NCBI GenBank assembly: GCA_963718895.1
Contig: CAVRAG010000008.1
Location: 992,001-1,056,000, forward strand
Direction: 5' to 3'
DNA from: an uncultured Nitrososphaerota archaeon
Lineage (GTDB): Archaea; Thermoproteota; Nitrososphaeria; Nitrososphaerales; Gagatemarchaeaceae
DNA length: 64,000 nt
Each line of letters starts with the position of its first letter. Position 1 is the stretch's first letter. Positions 1 through 55,474 of the stretch are shown piece by piece. The notes beneath the pieces are model-generated. The model was not told the origin of the DNA and made no database searches. It was given only the letters and a program-made list of their open reading frames with translations. Both the position numbers and the translations under genes were made by a program.

Positions 1-881
1 TCACCCACGAAGGGCTGCCGCCCACGTGCGTGGTGTAGGAGAAGGTGCCTGAAGCGGTGACCGCCTGTGTCGAGGAATCAAGTATCGTGAAAGAACCCTG
101 GAGATTCACTTTGATCGTGACGCTGTCCGGGAGCGAGGGCGTTGGACTGATCGTCCCGGAGATTGTGTAGCTCTGATCTCCCACGAGCGATGCGCTGGAA
201 GACGGGCTCGTTATTGAGACCGCGACTGGTGTGGTCGATGTGGTAGAGGTGGTCGAGTGCGTGCTGGAGGTGGTAGATGTGGAGCTTGTAGTCGAGGTTG
301 TTGAAGAGGTGGTTGAGGTGGTAGAGGTTGTAGTCGAGGTTGTTGAAGAGGTGGTTGAGGTGGTTGAGGTTGTAGTCGATCCGCCAGTCACCTGTATCGC
401 GATGCCCTGCATCAGCGAACCCTGCGCATAGAGAGTGAGCGTGTAGAGGCCTGCAGTCGTCGGCGCGGTCATCTTGTAGAGCGCGGTGATGTTTCCCGAT
501 CTCGGCGAGAGGTCCTGGGCGGAGCCGTCGGTGACCTGTGCTGGGGAGATCGTGAACTTGGCGTTGTCGGTCTGGTTCGACTCCCACAGCTGGAGTCCAG
601 TGACGACGCCCATGGGAGCCGTCGCTGTTGGTGCTGATCCGGAGGTGGAACGAGCTTCCGGCAGCTATAGAGCCGAAGAAGACTCCTGCCTCGCCGTCAC
701 CCGTGCCGTTAACGAAAATGGCGATGCCGTTGTTGTGGCACCAGCAGCCCTGGTCGAAGCCAGGCTCGCCGTGCGAGAAGCTGGTCGTGGTCCAGATGCC
801 GTACGTCGTAAACATGACGCCCAGGAGCAACGCCGTCAGACCAATGACGTACATTCTCCGTTTGTTCATTGCCAATTTCAC
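1..881 (-). CDS. Secreted/surface protein with CxCH motif, Thr/Ser-rich linker and Ig-like region; frameshift near 630; runs off window start
   Basis: Signal-like N-terminus and GCWCH. A second frame continues ...GLQLWESNQTDNAKFTISP...STTTSTTS...PVAVSITSP to the window edge. Confidence 0.65.
286..379. repeat. 42-bp tandem repeat (about 2.2 copies) encoding the Thr/Ser linker
   Basis: ttgtagtcgaggttgttgaagaggtggttgaggtggt[a/t]gagg at 286 and 328, partial copy at 370. Confidence 0.8.
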
Positions 882-13994: not shown

Positions 13995-14978
13995 TTGAAG
14001 GCCGTCGAAGCCGAGAACCTGACCAAGGTGTACGGTAGGGAGACCACGGCCCTAGACCACGTCAGCTTCTCCGTGGATGAGGGAGAGATCTTCGGGCTGC
14101 TCGGTCCCAACGGCGCAGGGAAGACGACTACGATCAAGATCATCACGACCCTGACAAAGCCGACTTCGGGGACGGCCCGCGTCTTCGGCACCGACGTCCT
14201 GATCCACCCCCAGCAGGTTAGGCAGATGATGGGCTACGTCCCGCAGGCGGTCTCGGTGGACGGCGACCTCACCGGGTACGAGAATCTCCTGATATTCTCG
14301 AAGCTCTTCTACGTCGACAAGAAGGAGAGGCAGGGACGCATCGCCGAAGCCCTGGACTTCATGCAGCTCAGCAGCAGGGCCGACGACCTCGTTAAGCACT
14401 ACTCCGGAGGGATGATGAGGAGGCTCGAGATTGCCCAGGCCCTTGTCAACAGGCCGCGGATCCTCTTCCTCGACGAGCCCAGCATCGGACTCGACCCGTT
14501 CTCGAAGAACGAGGTAAAGAACCAGGTCAAGGAACTGAACAAGGAGCTCAACATGACGATGATCGTCACGACCCACGACATGGTTGAGGCCGACGAGATA
14601 TGTGACAGAGTCGCGATCATGAACGCGGGACGCATCGCTGTCATTGACACCCCGACCCGCCTGAAGGAGTCGGTGGGCGGGGACATAATCACGGTCAGGC
14701 TCTCTCAGGGCGCGGGGGCCGTCTCTCTCCCTGCCGAGGTCGGGAGGCTGCTGAGCTACGAGGGAGGGGAGATGAGGGTCCTGACCGAGAACGGCGAGGA
14801 GAAGGTCCCGAAGATAGTCGACTTCCTGGAGTCGAAAGGTATGGTGATAGACTCGATTGTCCTTGCCAAGCCGACGCTCGACGACGTCTTCATCAAGTAC
14901 GCCGGGTCGCGGGTCGACCAGGGCCGCTACGTCGAGGCCAGGTCTGAGAGACGGAACTTCGCGAGGCGCGGCAGATGA
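13995..14978 (+). CDS. ABC exporter ATP-binding subunit (DrrA-like); start approximate
   Basis: GPNGAGKT, YSGGM, LFLDEP. Confidence 0.9.
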   Translation: MKAVEAENLTKVYGRETTALDHVSFSVDEGEIFGLLGPNGAGKTTTIKIITTLTKPTSGTARVFGTDVLIHPQQVRQMMGYVPQAVSVDGDLTGYENLLIFSKLFYVDKKERQGRIAEALDFMQLSSRADDLVKHYSGGMMRRLEIAQALVNRPRILFLDEPSIGLDPFSKNEVKNQVKELNKELNMTMIVTTHDMVEADEICDRVAIMNAGRIAVIDTPTRLKESVGGDIITVRLSQGAGAVSLPAEVGRLLSYEGGEMRVLTENGEEKVPKIVDFLESKGMVIDSIVLAKPTLDDVFIKYAGSRVDQGRYVEARSERRNFARRGR

Positions 14979-15745
14979 GCCTGGGAAGGTCACTCTCAAG
15001 CGTCTTCACGGTCGCCGAGATGGAAGCCAGGAAGATCAGGCACGACTCGACCGAGCTCTGGATGAGGGCGGTCCAGCCCGCCCTCTGGCTTCTGATCTTC
15101 GGGGAGGTGCTTAACTCGGTGAAGGTGCTCGCGCCTGCCGGCTACTCGTACATCCAGTACATAGCGCCCGGGGTCCTCGCCCAGTCGGTCCTCTTCGTGG
15201 CGATATTCTACGGGATAACGATCGTCTGGGAGCGCGACGTGGGCCTCCTGACCAAGCTGCTCTCCACGCCCTCTCCGCGGTCGTCCATCGTAATCGGGAA
15301 GGCGCTGGCCTCCGCCGTGAGAGGCGTCTTCCAGGCCGTCGTCATCTTCGCGCTCTCGCTGCTGCTCGGCATACACCTGAGGCTCGACCCGCTCGACGTG
15401 CTCGGGGTCTTTGGGATAGTGGTGCTGCTCTCGATGTGCTTCTCGAGCTTCTCGATGATCCTCGCCTCGTTCCTGAAGACCAGGGACCGGATGATGGGGA
15501 TAGGGCAGGTCCTGACGATGCCCCTCTTCTTCGCCAGCAGCGCCATCTACCCGATCTCGCTGATGCCGACGTGGCTCAAGTACATAGCCTACGTCAACCC
15601 GCTGAGCTACGTCGTGGACGCCCTGAGGTCGCTGCTCCTCACGGGAGACTACTCAGCGGTGCCGCTCGACATGGCCGCGCTCCTGATCTCGACGGTCTTC
15701 TTCGCAGGGCTGGCGTCGGTCGTGGTCAAGCGTCTGGTACAGTAG
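14975..15745 (+). CDS. ABC-2 type permease
   Basis: About six TM helices, NPLSYVVDALR; ATGA overlap with the ATPase gene. Confidence 0.9.
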   Translation: MSLGRSLSSVFTVAEMEARKIRHDSTELWMRAVQPALWLLIFGEVLNSVKVLAPAGYSYIQYIAPGVLAQSVLFVAIFYGITIVWERDVGLLTKLLSTPSPRSSIVIGKALASAVRGVFQAVVIFALSLLLGIHLRLDPLDVLGVFGIVVLLSMCFSSFSMILASFLKTRDRMMGIGQVLTMPLFFASSAIYPISLMPTWLKYIAYVNPLSYVVDALRSLLLTGDYSAVPLDMAALLISTVFFAGLASVVVKRLVQ

Positions 15746-15766
15746 AAGAAACCTGGAGGTTGGGGG

Positions 15767-15911
15767 TGGTGGGCCGGGAGTGAGTTGAACACTCGACCTT
15801 GGCGGTGTCTGCTTTCGCCGTGTCAGAGCGACGTCCTAACCAGGCTAAGGAGCTGTGCTCTCTGGTCTGAGATACAGATTCCCCACTTGGAGCGGACTAG
15901 ACGACCGGCCC
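15767..15911 (-). tRNA. tRNA-Val(GAC) with a D-loop insert (about 15845-15896, 52 nt) and an intron at 44/45 (15799-15813); CCA encoded
   Basis: Acceptor GGGCCGG/CCGGCCC-A-CCA; anticodon arm TCGCT-CTGACAC-GGCGA; T arm GAGTG-TTCAACT-CACTC; BHB helix GGCG/CGCC with AAA and AAG bulges. Confidence 0.9.
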
Positions 15912-16466
15912 AACAATACCCGTCTGGGAGATTCCCTTAAAGATGTTGAGGCCGAACAAGGTTTAGGGTCCTGGCGGCGGGGGTCCCTTCTAGGCCTGGT
16001 TCTGTGAATGGACCAAGGAGAGAGGTCTCCTTTCTTAGGCTTGGTGGGTGGTCGGCTCTGGAGCTAAGAACTCAAAACTGCACTGGATTCGCCGTCAATT
16101 GGGAGCTTCAGCCATCTTCCCCTGCACTTGGAGTACATTTGCAACCATCTGGCTGCGCGCTTCCTCGAAATCAAAAAGCCGACCTTTTCGTCGAACCGTT
16201 GAAGATTTCTGATTCCGGCGATGTGAAGTGAAAATGAGGTCTTTTTCATCCGAAAGGACTCGCCTCGGATAATCTTCAAAGTACCTGATTTGCGTTTCAA
16301 GTTAATCCTCGATTTGATTTGGAAGGACCTTCTAAAAATCCCTTGGACCCATCTGAGAAGCTCGGCGTTTGGTACCCCCCGGTCGGTCCATTCATCTGGA
16401 ACCGGCAGCGCGCCTCTTTTCTCTAGTCGGGAGAGCTTTTATCCGTATTGTCCAGGGCGGGACCTC

Positions 16467-17375
16467 ATGGGTCCTGTCGACACATACTCCATCGTCGCCA
16501 TCGACAAGAGGTCAGGGGAGATGGGAGTGGCGGTCCAGTCCCACTGGTTCTCCGTCGGTTCGGTCGTCACCTGGGCCGAGGCAGGCGTCGGTATAGTCGC
16601 CACTCAGGCCTCGGTCGAGATAAGCTACGGGCCGCTCGGTCTTGCGCTGATGAAGGGGGGTAAGACGCCTCAGCAGGCGCTCAAGTCGCTCCTTGCGACG
16701 GATCCGAGACCGGAGGTCCGGCAGGTCGCGATGCTCGACTCTCACGGCAGGGTGGCAGTCCACACCGGCAGGAGGTGCATGCCCGAGGCCGGGCACGAGT
16801 CGGGGCGCGGCTTCAGCGTCCAGGCGAACATCATGCGGAACCGCAGGGTGTGGAGAGCCATGGCCCGCTCCTTCAGGAAGTCGAAGGGCAGCCTCGCAGA
16901 GAGGCTCATGCTCGCGCTCGAGAGCGCCGAGCAGGCAGGAGGCGATCTCAGGGGGAGACAGTCAGCGGCGATTCTGGTCGTGAGGATCACCGGCAGCAGC
17001 TCGCCTTGGCACGACAGGGTCGTCGACCTCAGGGTCGAGGACCACCCGCAGCCTCTCGTCGAGATGAGGAGGCTGCTCAGGATTCATCAGGCGTTCACCC
17101 ACGCGAACAACGGCGACCTGCTCATGGAGAAGGGCGAGAACAGGAAGGCGCTCGAAGAGTACAAGAGGTCGGTCGAGCTCTCGCCCGAGAACCCCGAGCT
17201 CAGGTTCTGGCAGGGGGTCACCCTCCTCAACCACGGCGAGCTGGCAGAGGGCAGGGCCACCCTCAAGTCGGTCTTCAGGGCCAACAGCGACCTGAGGACG
17301 CTCTTTGGAAGGCTTCCCGAGGTCGGTCTCCTCAAGATAGACAAGGCGACCCTCCAGCAGCTCCTGAAGCTCTAG
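16467..17375 (+). CDS. DUF1028 (Ntn-hydrolase-like) protein with C-terminal TPR
   Basis: TYSIVA..GVAVQS, GGDLRGRQSAA, DLRVEDHPQP. Confidence 0.88.
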   Translation: MGPVDTYSIVAIDKRSGEMGVAVQSHWFSVGSVVTWAEAGVGIVATQASVEISYGPLGLALMKGGKTPQQALKSLLATDPRPEVRQVAMLDSHGRVAVHTGRRCMPEAGHESGRGFSVQANIMRNRRVWRAMARSFRKSKGSLAERLMLALESAEQAGGDLRGRQSAAILVVRITGSSSPWHDRVVDLRVEDHPQPLVEMRRLLRIHQAFTHANNGDLLMEKGENRKALEEYKRSVELSPENPELRFWQGVTLLNHGELAEGRATLKSVFRANSDLRTLFGRLPEVGLLKIDKATLQQLLKL

Positions 17376-28209: not shown

Positions 28210-29102
28210 TTCTGGTTCTCGGCGCTCCCTTCCTTCCTTGTGGCGAAGCCTCGTGGGTGGTTATCCTCGAAGAGGTCCTGGAGCGGGTTGTCCAGCTCAC
28301 GCATCTCCGTCACGAGCACTCCGTTCTCGACGAGCTTCCTCAGGACGACACCCGCATCCTCCGGCGTCGGGACGCTAAGGACATAGTAGCCGCCTTCGAG
28401 TCTGGCGTCGACCATACCGGAGATATCCGTCGTCGTCCTGATCCCGACCCTGTACTCCTTCGATCTAATGTTGGATATCTTGTCGAAGTAGCCTATCGTC
28501 CCGTCACGCACGAGGATCAGGTTCGTCCCGACGTCCTTGGCTTCGTAGAGGTTGTGCGAGGAATAGAGGACAATCCTGTCCTTCGAGAGTCTCAGGAGGA
28601 TGTCCCTTATCTCCTTCGAGACCGCGGGGTCGAGGCTCGATGTGGGTTCGTCGAGCAGGTACAGGTCCCTTTCTCGCAAGAAGACCTTGGCGATCGATAC
28701 CCTCTTCTTCTGTCCCTGGGACAGGTCTGAGACCTTCTTGTCCTTGAGCTCCTCGAGGTTCAGGAGGGAGATGACCTCGTCAGGGCTCCCGCCTTCAATC
28801 CTCGCGTAGAACTCGAGGGCACCGCGGACCGTCATCTCCTCAGGTATGGCGTTGTAGTGCGAGAGGTAGTTGATCCTCCTCCTCGCCTCCTTCGACCTCG
28901 TCAGGTCTTCGCCGTCGAACAGCACCTCTCCGGAGTAGGGCTCTAGTATTCCTGCAATCGTCCTGAACAGTGTGGTCTTTCCTGCGCCGTTTGGACCCAA
29001 GACGACGTAGATCGCGGACTCTTGGGCTTTGAAGGAGATGTCGTGGAGGACCGTCTTCCCCTCGTACCCCGAGCTCACTCCTGCGAGTTCCAGCGTGGGC
29101 AA
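28206..29102 (-). CDS. ABC transporter ATP-binding protein
   Basis: GPNGAGKT, LSQGQ, LLDEP. Confidence 0.92.
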   Translation of the reverse strand: MPTLELAGVSSGYEGKTVLHDISFKAQESAIYVVLGPNGAGKTTLFRTIAGILEPYSGEVLFDGEDLTRSKEARRRINYLSHYNAIPEEMTVRGALEFYARIEGGSPDEVISLLNLEELKDKKVSDLSQGQKKRVSIAKVFLRERDLYLLDEPTSSLDPAVSKEIRDILLRLSKDRIVLYSSHNLYEAKDVGTNLILVRDGTIGYFDKISNIRSKEYRVGIRTTTDISGMVDARLEGGYYVLSVPTPEDAGVVLRKLVENGVLVTEMRELDNPLQDLFEDNHPRGFATRKEGSAENQN

Positions 29103-29267
29103 CTCTGGGCATCACTTCGACGGGACCAGTTCGGTGCCCGGGTCAATCCCCTGCGGTGCGGCCTGTCGGCCGCATGGTGGGTCTCGGAGTTGCATTCTTC
29201 GATTACCTCGTCCGATTCTCGGGCTTTCGGAAGCCCTATTTATTCAGGGAGAACACGCTTTCATCCG

Positions 29268-30042: not shown

Positions 30043-30175
30043 TGCGGTCGCCGGGATTTGAACCCGGGCGTCTGGTCCCGTTTACGGGATTACCAGCTTG
30101 GCAAGCCTACACGCACTCTTCGCGCTTGATGTCCTGACCAGGCTGTCCTCCATTCGAGATCTAGACGACGACCGC
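30043..30175 (-). tRNA. tRNA-Gly(GCC) with three introns: 15/16 (30143-30160), 29/30 (30107-30126), 45/46 (30070-30090)
   Basis: Acceptor GCGGTCG/CGACCGC; spliced anticodon arm TCAGC-TTGCCAA-GCTGG; T arm CCGGG-TTCAAAT-CCCGG; each intron forms a BHB; 74 nt after splicing. Confidence 0.92.
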
Positions 30176-34372: not shown

Positions 34373-34508
34373 GGGCCGGTAGTCTAGTCTGGAAGGATAC
34401 AGCAGGGCGTCCAACCCCTTGGCAAGACAGACTCCCATAGTGGGGGAGGTCGGGGGTTCGAGTCTCATCGCCGAAGAGCGATGGGCGAATATCCCCCCCG
34501 GTCCACCA
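34373..34508 (+). tRNA. tRNA-Ala(GGC) with three introns: 27/28 (34401-34414), 37/38 (34425-34440), 59/60 (34463-34491); CCA encoded
   Basis: Acceptor GGGCCGG/CCGGTCC with G3:U70; spliced anticodon arm CCCCC-TTGGCAT-GGGGG; BHB helices GGAT/GTCC and TTCG/CGAA; TTTTAA at 34343. Confidence 0.92.
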
Positions 34509-42375: not shown

Positions 42376-43209
42376 TTAAACTTTCGTGTTTTGCGAGGCA
42401 TTCAGCACCTCGAGTAGATAGAGCGCGGAGGCGATCGCCTCCTCAGACCGGACCGTCGCCACGTGCTGCTCGGGGTAGATGTTCAGCACGAAACCCACTC
42501 GTCCCCGGAGGTCCCCGGCCAAGTCGAAGAGGCCGCGGGAGGGAGAGCCGAAGAGCACCAGGATGCCTCCTGAAGCGCCGACGCGACCGCCGATGTCGGG
42601 GAGGCTCGGCCCGAGCGGATCGCCAAGACGGGAGGTGGCTATCTTCAGCCCGAAGCGGGAATCCGCGAGGACGTCCTCCATGCTTCTCTCTTCGACGGAG
42701 TAGCCCCAGTACTCGCCGGTCTGCGAGCGATTCGCGGGGACGCCCTGGAGGGGTGCGGTGGATGTTATCTTCACCGTGAGCCTCCTTCTGCCGGCGACCC
42801 TTTGGCTCAGCGCGAGGGGCACGTCGAGGCCGACGTCCACGGTAACTCCGTCCTCGAGGACCGCGCCCTCCCTGTACTCTCCCTGGCGCAGGCTCGCGAC
42901 AGCGACCCTCGGCTTGTGGGAGGGTATCCTAAGGGGAGGGAGGAGCCCTGCGTACTTCAGCGACTCGTCGAGCGGGAAGAGCCGTCTCCTGAGGTACTGC
43001 GGCGTCTCGAGGTACTCCAGGACCCGCCTGATGAGACCGGACTCGCCTCCCCCGCGTGGGTCGTGGAAGACCTGTATCACGTCGACCCCGAAGATGGAAC
43101 AGGTCCTGGCGATCTGACCGAGCTTGACCGTCTTCTCCCTGAGGGAGTCGCGCTCCTCCAGAACGGTGTCGGGGAACGCGATTGAAAGCTTCTTACCGGC
43201 GAGTGTCAT
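42376..43209 (-). CDS. SPOUT RNA methyltransferase (DUF171/COG2106)
   Basis: LEYLETPQYLRR, YWGY, FGSP, TVRSEEA; upstream of rpl3. Confidence 0.88.
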   Translation of the reverse strand: MTLAGKKLSIAFPDTVLEERDSLREKTVKLGQIARTCSIFGVDVIQVFHDPRGGGESGLIRRVLEYLETPQYLRRRLFPLDESLKYAGLLPPLRIPSHKPRVAVASLRQGEYREGAVLEDGVTVDVGLDVPLALSQRVAGRRRLTVKITSTAPLQGVPANRSQTGEYWGYSVEERSMEDVLADSRFGLKIATSRLGDPLGPSLPDIGGRVGASGGILVLFGSPSRGLFDLAGDLRGRVGFVLNIYPEQHVATVRSEEAIASALYLLEVLNASQNTKV

Positions 43210-53759: not shown

Positions 53760-55474
53760 AAGACGGACATCTCCTTGGATGTGCCGTAGACGGTCTCCTT
53801 GATGCTCTTCCCGGGAGGCATGAACGGGAAGACGTCCTCCTCGTGCGAGACGGGGACCTCTATGAGCGTGGGCGAGTCGCTCCTGACGCCCTCCCTCAGC
53901 GCCTTCCCGAACTCGTCGAGCGAGCCGACGCGCGTGCCCTGCACGCCGTAGGATTCGGCCAGCTTCACGAAATCGGGCAGGTTCTGGAATCTGATGCCGA
54001 TGAAGCGTCGGTTGTACATCAGCCTCTGCCACTGCTCGACCATCCCCAAGCTCCTGTCGTTCATCACTATGGCGACCACGGGGATCTTCTCCTCCACTGC
54101 CGTCGCGAGGGCCTGCTCGGTCATCACGAAGCTTCCGTCGCCATCGAAGTCGACCACCGGAACACCGGGCATTGCGAACTTCGCGCCCACTGCGGCCGGG
54201 AGTCCGAAGCCCATCGTCCCCAGGCCCGTAGAGGTCACCCAGGTCCTCGGCCGCATCACGCGGTAGTGGATTTCGCACCACATCTGGTGTCTGCCGACGC
54301 CGGTCGTGAGAATCGCTTCCGGAGGCAGTATGTCTCTCATCAGCTTGACAATCTTGGGTCCCGACAGTTCCGCGTAGGCGTCCTTGTAGGCGGGGATGCC
54401 CTTCATCTCCTCCCGGACCTGGTTGAGGCGCGCAAGCCACGCGTTGTCGTCGGTCTTCCTGGTGATTCGCCTTACCAGCGCGTCGAAGAGCATGGTGAGA
54501 ACTCGGTTCGCGTCACCGAGTATGCTCAGGGTGACGAGCTTGTTCTTGTTGAACTCGGTCGGGTCCGCGTCTATGTGGATGATCTTGGCGTCGGGCGCGA
54601 ACTCGCTGAAGGTCCCCGTCGAGCGGTCGGAGAACCTAACGCCCACGGCAAGAAGAACGTCACACTCTCCGACGAGCTTGTTGGCCTCGGCCCGTCCGTG
54701 CATCCCTATGGGTCCCACGGAGAGGGGATGGTCCTCTGGGAATGTCCCCTTGCCCTGGAGCGTCGTGATGACGGGGGCCACCAGGAGTTCGGCTATGGCC
54801 TTGAACTGAAGGGAGGCGTCCGCTATCCTGATCCCTCCTCCCCCGAAGAGCAGGGGCCTCTGGGCTTTCACCAGCATGTCGGCCGCCCTCTCGATGTCCT
54901 GCGAGTCGACCGCCGCACTGGGCCTGTATCCTCTAATCTCGATCGAGTCCGGGAAGGTAATTTCGGCCTCCTCCTGCTGCACGTCCTTGGGTATGTCGAG
55001 CAGGACGGGTCCTGGCCTCCCGGTCTGGGCGATGTAGAAACTCTTCTTCACGGCGGAGGGTATCTCGGCCGCGGAGAGGGGCTGAAGAGTGTACTTGGTT
55101 ATCGGGGTGAGCACACCGACCACATCCGTCTCCTGGAAGCCGCTCTTCCCCGTCATGCTCTTCGAGACCTGTCCCGTGATTGCGACCACTGGGGAAGAGT
55201 CGGCAAACGCCGTCGCGATCCCGGTGACGAGGTTTGTCGCTCCGGGACCCGAGGTGGCGGAGCAGACCCCGGCCTTCCTCGAGACCCTGCCGTAGGCGTC
55301 CGCCATGTGGGCGCCGATCTGCTCGTGCCTTACGAGCACGTGCTTGATCTTCGAGTCCCACAGCGCGTCATAGAACGGGAGGTTGGCGCCTCCAGGCATC
55401 CCGAAGATGTACTCTACCTTCTCCTTCTCAAGGGCCTCCACGATGGCCCGTGCCCCGGACATTTTTTCAGGCAT
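53756..55474 (-). CDS. ilvB: Acetolactate synthase large subunit
   Basis: FGMPGGA, VRHEQ, TSGPGATN, GLGTMGFGLP, GDGSF..N, LGMVEQWQ. Confidence 0.96.
   Translation of the reverse strand: MPEKMSGARAIVEALEKEKVEYIFGMPGGANLPFYDALWDSKIKHVLVRHEQIGAHMADAYGRVSRKAGVCSATSGPGATNLVTGIATAFADSSPVVAITGQVSKSMTGKSGFQETDVVGVLTPITKYTLQPLSAAEIPSAVKKSFYIAQTGRPGPVLLDIPKDVQQEEAEITFPDSIEIRGYRPSAAVDSQDIERAADMLVKAQRPLLFGGGGIRIADASLQFKAIAELLVAPVITTLQGKGTFPEDHPLSVGPIGMHGRAEANKLVGECDVLLAVGVRFSDRSTGTFSEFAPDAKIIHIDADPTEFNKNKLVTLSILGDANRVLTMLFDALVRRITRKTDDNAWLARLNQVREEMKGIPAYKDAYAELSGPKIVKLMRDILPPEAILTTGVGRHQMWCEIHYRVMRPRTWVTSTGLGTMGFGLPAAVGAKFAMPGVPVVDFDGDGSFVMTEQALATAVEEKIPVVAIVMNDRSLGMVEQWQRLMYNRRFIGIRFQNLPDFVKLAESYGVQGTRVGSLDEFGKALREGVRSDSPTLIEVPVSHEEDVFPFMPPGKSIKETVYGTSKEMSVF

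Follow-up and report, generated by a model that had tools for sequence, protein, structure and literature searches.

A putative intron nested within an intron in the D loop of a tRNA-Val(GAC) gene from an uncultured Nitrososphaerota archaeon

The tRNA-Val(GAC) gene of an uncultured Nitrososphaerota archaeon (assembly GCA_963718895.1, contig CAVRAG010000008.1) lies on the minus strand of a stretch of 64,000 nucleotides (nt) spanning contig positions 992,001 to 1,056,000, which is referred to here as the window, and its D loop carries an insert of 52 nt (15896..15845; precursor positions 16-67). This insert probably consists of two nested introns, a 32-nt intron lying within a 20-nt intron, and together with a separate 15-nt intron the gene would then contain three introns. 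This reading draws on the anatomy of the sequence, the folding energetics, the conservation of the insert and the canonical product obtained by splicing in silico. A sequence-only reading of the same DNA had proposed serial excision of two to three nested introns with relaxed helices and up to four introns in the gene. Nested serial excision is the best-supported reading also in the present analysis, and a relaxed helix is used in one of its steps, but the number of introns falls to two in the insert and to three in the gene.

In the cloverleaf reading, the gene comprises 142 nt from G1 to the discriminator A73 (15911..15770) and is directly followed by an encoded CCA (15769..15767); precursor positions are counted from 15911 as position 1. 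Exon 1 (15897..15911; tRNA positions 1-15) provides the 5′ strand of the acceptor stem, U8 and C9, the D-stem strand GUCU and A14 G15, and is identical in the orthologs L002 and L003. Exon 2 (15814..15844; tRNA 16-44) contains the remainder of the D loop, the 3′ strand of the D stem and the anticodon arm with the anticodon GAC, and exon 3 (15770..15798; tRNA 45-73) contains the variable loop, the T arm, the 3′ strand of the acceptor stem and the discriminator A. Exons 2 and 3 are separated by the third intron (15799..15813; 15 nt, position 44/45), which has a clean bulge-helix-bulge (BHB) motif (GGCG/CGCC, bulges AA|A and AA|G) and is also present in L002 and L003. Once all three introns are removed, the mature body has 75 nt, and both a cloverleaf solver and ARAGORN identified the product spliced in silico as tRNA-Val(gac) of 75 nt plus CCA. 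With the inner intron alone removed, ARAGORN made no call. Within the window as it stands, ARAGORN reported no gene and Rfam no match at gathering score, and in a whole-genome search the RF00005 model reached only 15.4 bits at the unspliced locus. The assembly (80.5% complete) contains no second Val(GAC) gene, and neither of the other Val genes of the genome, the CAC gene on C7 and the UAC gene on C8, has a D-loop insert. Since the sole Val(GAC) gene is missed by the standard finders, automatic annotation would report an essential tRNA as lacking.

BHB motifs were read by a convention in which the 5′ exon closes with a 4-nt helix strand and two bulge bases, and the intron likewise closes with the complementary strand and two further bulge bases. 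For validation, it was applied to the seven other introns of the window, i.e. the 15-nt intron of Val(GAC), three introns of tRNA-Gly(GCC) and three of tRNA-Ala(GGC), all of which splice to perfect cloverleaves. Six of them show four of four central pairs and the 16-nt Ala intron shows three of four with a U-U mismatch, so that the solver confirmed what the sequence-only reading had stated for these introns. Removal of 52 nt from the D loop with a 5′ exon ending at position 12, 13, 14 or 15 leads to one identical product, which has the orthologous D loop. When read by hand, these four registers offer 1, 0, 0 and 1 of 4 central pairs, respectively, as expected from the earlier statement that none of them gives a 4-bp (base pair) helix. 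The further claim that no single BHB motif fits the insert is correct for these four registers but not for all, as a BHB scan returned a single 52-nt candidate that is none of the four and whose 5′ exon ends at position 17; it is discussed below.

In the nested arrangement, the inner intron (15847..15878; precursor 34-65) has a strict motif of the hBHBh′ format, in which the flanking helices have at least 2 bp. Its central helix is formed by GGGG (15884..15881; 28-31) and CUCC (15852..15849; 60-63) with three G-C pairs and one G-U pair, and thus has the full 4 bp, with the bulges AA|U and UU|A. The outer helix has 2 bp (26-27 with 67-68), followed past one mismatch by three more pairs in the minimum-energy fold, and the inner helix has 4 bp (CUGU/ACAG, 35-38 with 56-59). 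Removal of the inner intron joins GGAA (30-33) to AG (66-67), whereby the outer intron, 20 nt long and located at position 15/16, becomes complete. The 5′ part of the outer intron (15879..15896; precursor 16-33) consists of the third bulge base, U, a CCGC/GUGG helix with a 5-nt loop and GGAA, and its 3′ part (15845..15846; precursor 66-67) is the AG that provides the first two bases of the 3′ bulge after the inner excision. The resulting motif has the bulges AG|U and AG|C, a central helix GUCU/GGAA in which U13-G, C12-G and U11-A are paired and G10 faces A33, and one flanking helix beside a 3-nt bulge, the inner helix CCGC/GUGG of 4 bp, which is scored as 5 bp in the scan because the closing pair is counted. 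Excision of both introns restores the cloverleaf with the D loop AGCCUGGUUA, which is that of the closest orthologs. Of the three mini-hairpins listed by the sequence-only reading, all word pairs are present in the sequence and CCGC/GUGG is the only one used in the best-supported fold; UCUG/CAGA and GAGC/GCUC are not its stems, the stem of the inner intron being CUGU/ACAG plus UCUC/GAGA.

The two motifs impose an order on the pathway. In the precursor, the strand of the outer helix that ends with A33 and the bulge bases A66 and G67 are 32 nt apart, and bases 26-31 are common to the inner and the outer motif, so the two folds are mutually exclusive and the outer motif can form only once the inner intron is gone. 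The reactions that we infer for the precursor, and their order, are the following. The primary transcript would fold into the strict inner BHB motif, borrowing bases from the outer intron and exon 2, whereupon the endonuclease would cleave at 33|34 and 65|66 and the ligase would join A33 to A66. The RNA would then refold, with bases 26-31 changing partners, and the relaxed outer motif with its G-A mismatch would form. Cleavage at 15|16 and 67|68 and a second ligation would then restore a normal D loop, and excision of the 15-nt intron at 44/45 would be independent of these steps.

Simple ranking by pair counts did not discriminate between the candidate pathways, as hundreds of paths tie, and energetic cost was therefore used instead. 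The cost of a step was defined as the energy of the forced motif, in which the central pairs are enforced and the bulges are kept unpaired, minus the unconstrained minimum free energy. The inner intron costs 2.2 kcal/mol and the outer intron, after removal of the inner one, 4.0 kcal/mol. These values lie beside 0.0-4.9 kcal/mol for the seven control introns of the window, among them 0.0 kcal/mol for the 15-nt intron at 44/45, and beside 0.3, 2.9 and 4.9 kcal/mol for the single D-loop introns of the loci L170, L047 and L046, respectively, which are described below. Excision in one or two steps with a valid D arm as the outcome is possible by 553 paths; when these are ordered by the cost of their most expensive step, the nested path comes first. 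When the 52 nt were shuffled 3000 times, 118 of the shuffled inserts yielded a strict inner motif and 34 yielded a two-step path of the observed quality.

Inserts comparable to that of Val(GAC) were found with a gapped pattern for D-loop inserts of Val genes, which matched four metagenome contigs (L046-L049), and with a tighter version of it, which matched one genome record (L170). The contigs L046 and L047 and the record L170 each have one long, single intron at 15/16. The Val(CAC) gene of L048 and the Val(UAC) gene of L049 are otherwise intact and contain inserts homologous to that of the window, composed of a short hairpin, GGGGAA, a hairpin with four pyrimidines plus two bases on its 3′ side, and AG. 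Both can be read with the identical two-step design at the identical positions, 33|34 and then 15|16. In L049, the inner motif has 4/4 central pairs and flanking helices of 2 and 4 bp, the outer motif has 3/4 central pairs and an inner helix of 4 bp, the two steps cost 5.6 and 2.2 kcal/mol, and the path ranks 4th of 848. In L048, the inner motif has 4/4 central pairs, flanking helices of 1 and 10 bp and a cost of 3.2 kcal/mol, and the outer motif has 3/4 central pairs and an inner helix of 3 bp. In an alignment of the window insert with L048 and L049, 29 of the 30 cells of the inner motif are paired, vs 37-60% when the partners are slid, and two pairs are changed on both sides in a compensatory manner (UA to CG and UA to GU). 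For the outer motif, the count of paired cells is 20 of 21. Bases 60-63 are pyrimidines in all three sequences and all 12 cells pair with GGGG. Being counts on three related sequences, these figures are suggestive, not decisive.

Among 41 related genomes, the best matches to the gene were found in two genomes of the same genus (G011 and G001), with 99% identity over precursor positions 65-144. The Val genes of both contain the 15-nt intron and an uninterrupted D arm with the loop AGCCUGGUUA, and the D arm is uninterrupted in all 18 Val-type genes of relatives that were compared. The insert has no paralog in its own genome as judged by blastn-short (best non-self match 14 nt, E 0.45), and a 64-nt query gave nothing better than E 0.04 in 60 related genomes besides its own. 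Exact scans with a 21-mer of the inner intron in a collection of genome contigs and with a 20-mer over the 3′ junction in a collection of metagenome contigs gave no match. A loose form of the gapped pattern matched only the window's own genome among 401 genomes of the class. In the genome contigs, the loose pattern gave at least 120 matches, mostly with bacterial titles, of which a T-loop screen passed one, an ordinary bacterial tRNA matched by chance, and three archaeal-labelled loci among the matches listed were not tRNAs. The tighter pattern without the Val prefix gave 24 loci in the genome contigs; the 12 archaeal-labelled ones were inspected and comprised six true single D-loop introns, six chance occurrences of a double GTCTAG and no nested intron.

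The single introns at 15/16 provide a reference for the outer intron. The insertion site and the bulges AG|N and AG|C are the same in the Gly introns of the window, G001 and G011 and in the Val introns of L046, L047, L170, L188 and L031, and in the single introns as in the outer intron the D-stem strand GUCU forms one strand of the central helix. The common layout is one base, a helix of 3-4 bp, a 5-nt loop, GGAN and AG. Ten distinct single 15/16 introns were collected, in which the strand facing GUCU is GGAC in four (Gly of the window, Gly of G001, which is the same intron as L176, Gly of G011, which is the same as L194, and L170), GGAU in two (L047 and L188), GGAA in two (L046 and L031, the latter identical to L179) and GGAG in two (L189 and L192), each followed by AG, beyond which the exon continues with CC or UC. 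The search patterns for 15/16 introns required this AG, and its constancy therefore carries no weight. In four of the ten, the fourth base, opposite G10, does not pair, and from the variety of the GGAN strands it follows that this base is free in the 15/16 class and that a helix of three pairs is a natural form of it. At 18 nt, the D-loop intron of Gly in the window is slightly shorter than its 20-nt counterparts in G001 and G011. Loci L189 and L192, labelled Bathyarchaeia, and L188, labelled Nitrososphaerales, have 15/16 introns of 30-40 nt with GGAG or GGAU. As 15/16 introns thus occur in other archaeal lineages, the insertion site is widely used, with a variable base opposite G10. Locus L031 (G030:C101:1492-1654, locus coordinates) is a Val(UAC)-like gene of 163 nt from another family of the same order, which has, besides a D-loop intron of 45 nt, at least two more inserts around the anticodon arm. 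The single 15/16 introns are removed in one step, whereas in Val(GAC) the GGAA and the AG are 32 nt apart before the inner excision.

The insert is not an assembly slip. Seven sequencing runs from three studies, all of them soil or peat metagenomes, cover parts of the stretch; a look-up for 15650-16050 listed no RNA run, and the four that were examined consist of DNA contigs. One contig of 151 nt (run X1), which may stem from the source sample of the window, spans 15793-15943 with no difference, and another of 151 nt from a different study (run X3) spans 15802-15952, where it is free of gaps and differs at 11 positions. A diverged relative thus holds the same 52-nt insert. Six differences of X3 are listed within the gene, and all of them are intronic and none exonic, five being located in the insert (precursor 27, 50, 51, 55 and 56) and one in the 15-nt intron (105). 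The change of U27 to C converts a G-U into a G-C pair in the outer helix of the inner intron and in the inner helix of the outer intron, that of A56 to G retains the pair, and that of C55 to U adds a pair beside the inner helix. The remaining two in the insert, at 50 and 51, disrupt an apical stem which the nested model does not require. Further read contigs diverge at 15847 and continue as uninterrupted genes; these represent intron-free relatives. A box C/D guide RNA within the intron, as in archaeal tRNA-Trp, was also considered for the insert and rejected; Rfam gave no match at the locus up to an E value of 1, and neither RUGAUGA nor CUGA was seen on reading the insert.

Several points weigh against nested excision. 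The outer intron does not have a 4-bp central helix, and with three of four pairs it belongs to the relaxed class only (HBh′ or bulge-helix-loop-like); it also has no outer flanking helix, a feature shared with the Gly D-loop intron of the window. The unconstrained fold favours a register of the inner helix that is one base off the inner BHB motif, and the costs are based on nearest-neighbour energies at 37 °C, which are a rough guide to enzyme binding. The L048 path is no better than 19th of 785, and its outer step requires 8.7 kcal/mol. The comparison comprises three sequences and one low-depth contig, the sequences compared are homologous and their shared features are therefore not independent, and a shuffle control matched the observed values of the inner motif in 54 of 500 cases. 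Finally, the support for the pathway comes from DNA sequence.

In one alternative, there is one undivided 52-nt intron, placed between positions 17 and 17a of the tRNA (15843..15894; precursor 18-69, minus strand), the candidate returned by the BHB scan in the 17/18 register, which would be removed in one step. Its central helix CUAG/UUAG has 4 bp (three Watson-Crick pairs and one G-U pair) and is bounded by UC|C and CC|U as two exact 3-nt bulges. Its excision would yield a valid tRNA-Val with the D loop AGUCUGGUUA, in which position 16 is U, not C, as found in the Val genes of other genomes of the same genus. The equivalent helix in L048 has four of four Watson-Crick pairs and 17 of 18 cells are paired over the three sequences, a further point that counts against the nested arrangement. 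However, the flanking helices of this motif have 1 bp each, and forcing the motif takes 13.1 kcal/mol both here and in L048 and 14.3 kcal/mol in L049, vs 0.0-4.9 kcal/mol for the controls; the corresponding paths rank 301/553, 167/785 and 324/848. The central helix is broken by an A-G mismatch in L049, and in Val(GAC) it competes with a stable intron rod that uses bases 67-72 and must melt first. Since CUAG is palindromic, the conserved AG of the outer bulge pairs automatically and chance needs to supply only two further pairs, and shuffled inserts equalled the quality of the motif in 220 of 3000 cases. In addition, the base at position 16 would vary between the three genes (U, G and U), whereas the nested arrangement gives the usual C in all of them. 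We consider this single intron unlikely.

A second alternative is one-step excision at 15|16 and 67|68, with a bulge-helix-loop reading in which the 32-nt hairpin is tolerated within the 3′ 'loop', so that the insert would be a single 52-nt intron, released without an intermediate. It would use the splice sites of nested excision and give the same product, and heteromeric endonucleases are reported to accept the hBH and HBh′ formats, according to a passage of PMC4090602. The 3′ cut would have to be placed 34 nt past the helix strand instead of 2 nt, the conserved complementarity of bases 60-63 to GGGG (pyrimidines throughout, with every cell paired) would be left unexplained, and so would the retention of two exact 3-nt bulges, 4 bp apart, inside the insert. 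One-step excision at these sites is accordingly improbable in our judgement.

The gene might also be a dead tRNA gene inactivated by the insertion, or an artefact of assembly. The closest orthologs are without the insert, relatives of the insert were not found in its own genome or in 60 related genomes, and in an assembly of this completeness an intact copy could be missing. Set against these points, the exons are unchanged with respect to the orthologs, the diverged X3 contig keeps the insert and confines its listed changes within the gene to introns, homologous inserts are found in Val(CAC) and Val(UAC) genes that are otherwise intact, and no other Val(GAC) gene is present in the assembly, which makes a dead gene or an artefact very unlikely. 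The route originally traced by hand, in which two to three mini-introns on three hairpins lead to the D loop AGUGGUUA, shorter than that of the orthologs, does exist as a three-step path with a good GUCU/GGAC helix in its last step, but it can be set aside as extremely unlikely, as it is one of 187 relaxed paths and thus easily found by chance, the flanking helices of its first two steps measure 0-2 bp, its helices are absent from the favoured fold and unsupported by the homologs, and its product is unlike the D loop of every ortholog.

BHB introns are dependent on a splicing endonuclease of the host. The genome contains two PF01974 matches above the cut-off (G000:C8:116589-116828 and C7:620834-621088), located in open reading frames (ORFs) of 185 and 181 amino acids of the EndA family (C8:116316-116873 and C7:620576-621121) that match solved tRNA-splicing endonucleases with E values of 7e-41 and 3e-24, respectively. 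The presence of two predicted EndA paralogs is compatible with a heteromeric enzyme, a type that is reported to cleave relaxed motifs (hBH, HBh′) and to go along with non-canonical and multiple introns, as stated in a passage of the review PMC4090602.

The Val(GAC) gene is located between the ORFs 14975-15745 and 16290-17375. The sole listed ORF that touches it (15436..15783, 115 amino acids) overlaps its 3′ end and is taken as spurious, and no ORF of at least 70 amino acids covers the 52-nt insert. An A/T-rich box, CTTTAAG (15936..15942, minus strand), is found 25-31 nt upstream of position 1 and is likely the archaeal TATA box of a Val(GAC) promoter; A/T-rich boxes occur at comparable distances upstream of the Val genes of relatives. 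CCA is encoded at Val(GAC) and in the orthologs L002 and L003, and several other Val genes of relatives lack it. The GAC, CAC and UAC genes of the genome have similar introns of 15-16 nt at 44/45 (15799..15813 in the window; G000:C7:239196-239330; C8:1093101-1093215, respectively), which start with AAGCAG and finish with CCGCCA, and the 44/45 intron looks like a single old intron common to the Val isoacceptor family.

The other two intron-containing tRNA genes of the window are tRNA-Gly(GCC) (30175..30043, minus strand), with introns of 18, 20 and 21 nt, and tRNA-Ala(GGC) (34373..34505, plus strand), with introns of 14, 16 and 29 nt, both of which were spliced to perfect cloverleaves by the solver. 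Their introns are located at the D loop, the anticodon stem or loop, the variable region and the T loop, and both genes escaped ARAGORN as well as Rfam at gathering score. If the Val(GAC) introns are counted as nested, the window holds nine introns in three tRNA genes. With its intron option, ARAGORN called a tRNA-Arg(cct) at 28272..29210 with an intron of 842 nt, which is probably spurious, as many of the genome-wide calls made with this option have introns of hundreds to thousands of bases. Weak Rfam matches to sR18 (54017..54069, minus strand; 24.2 bits vs a gathering score of 45) and to sR58 (43087..43144, plus strand; 23.6 bits vs 55) both have visible C and D boxes and are possible box C/D guide RNAs below threshold.

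Nested multiple introns are known, though seldom documented, from crenarchaeal pre-tRNAs, as described in passages of PMC3978253 and PMC3728597 that refer to Sugahara et al. 2007 (RNA 13:671) and Tocchini-Valentini et al. 2009 (PNAS 106:20246). Since nested serial splicing of tRNA has been published for Crenarchaeota, the mechanism as such is known from these passages and Val(GAC) adds a new case. In both, a protein splicing endonuclease and a ligase are involved, or would be, and relaxed motifs occur beside strict ones. As far as the published cases can be judged from the citing passages, Val(GAC) differs in that the nesting is located in the D loop and in that the inner intron splits the 3′ motif of the outer intron itself, separating the helix strand from the bulge. 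Further differences from the cases in these passages are that three Val isoacceptor genes retain the arrangement and that the host is an archaeon of soil or peat with relatives labelled Nitrososphaerales or Thaumarchaeota, whereas the crenarchaeal cases are thermophilic. A second point of comparison is the intron transposition reported for Thermoproteales (Fujishima et al. 2010), in which similar introns are present in different tRNA genes of one genome, according to a passage of PMC4090602. Recent gain of an intron relative to close relatives and a non-canonical position are common to that description and to Val(GAC), whereas a transposed family as described there has no counterpart, no similar insert being found in the genome itself or in the 60 related genomes.

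We tentatively propose, without yet calling it probable, that an intron was gained inside the splice motif of another intron and has been kept as an obligatory two-step pathway in all three Val isoacceptor lineages of a mesophilic soil or peat group of archaea. The ancestor predicted by the nested arrangement would be a gene with the 20-nt outer intron alone. Val(GAC) offers a clean natural case for ordered splicing, as the outer motif is impossible before the inner excision, and the sister species with an uninterrupted gene and the three isoacceptor variants make it informative. It raises the questions of the extent to which a central helix of 3 bp that contains a G-A mismatch is accepted by the endonuclease and of how BHB introns are gained. 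If the proposal is true, BHB introns can invade BHB structures at the RNA level, whether exonic or intronic, the close intron-free orthologs would represent a dated natural before-and-after pair for the gain of a BHB intron, and ordered, refolding-dependent splicing of tRNA would extend well beyond the hyperthermophilic Crenarchaeota.

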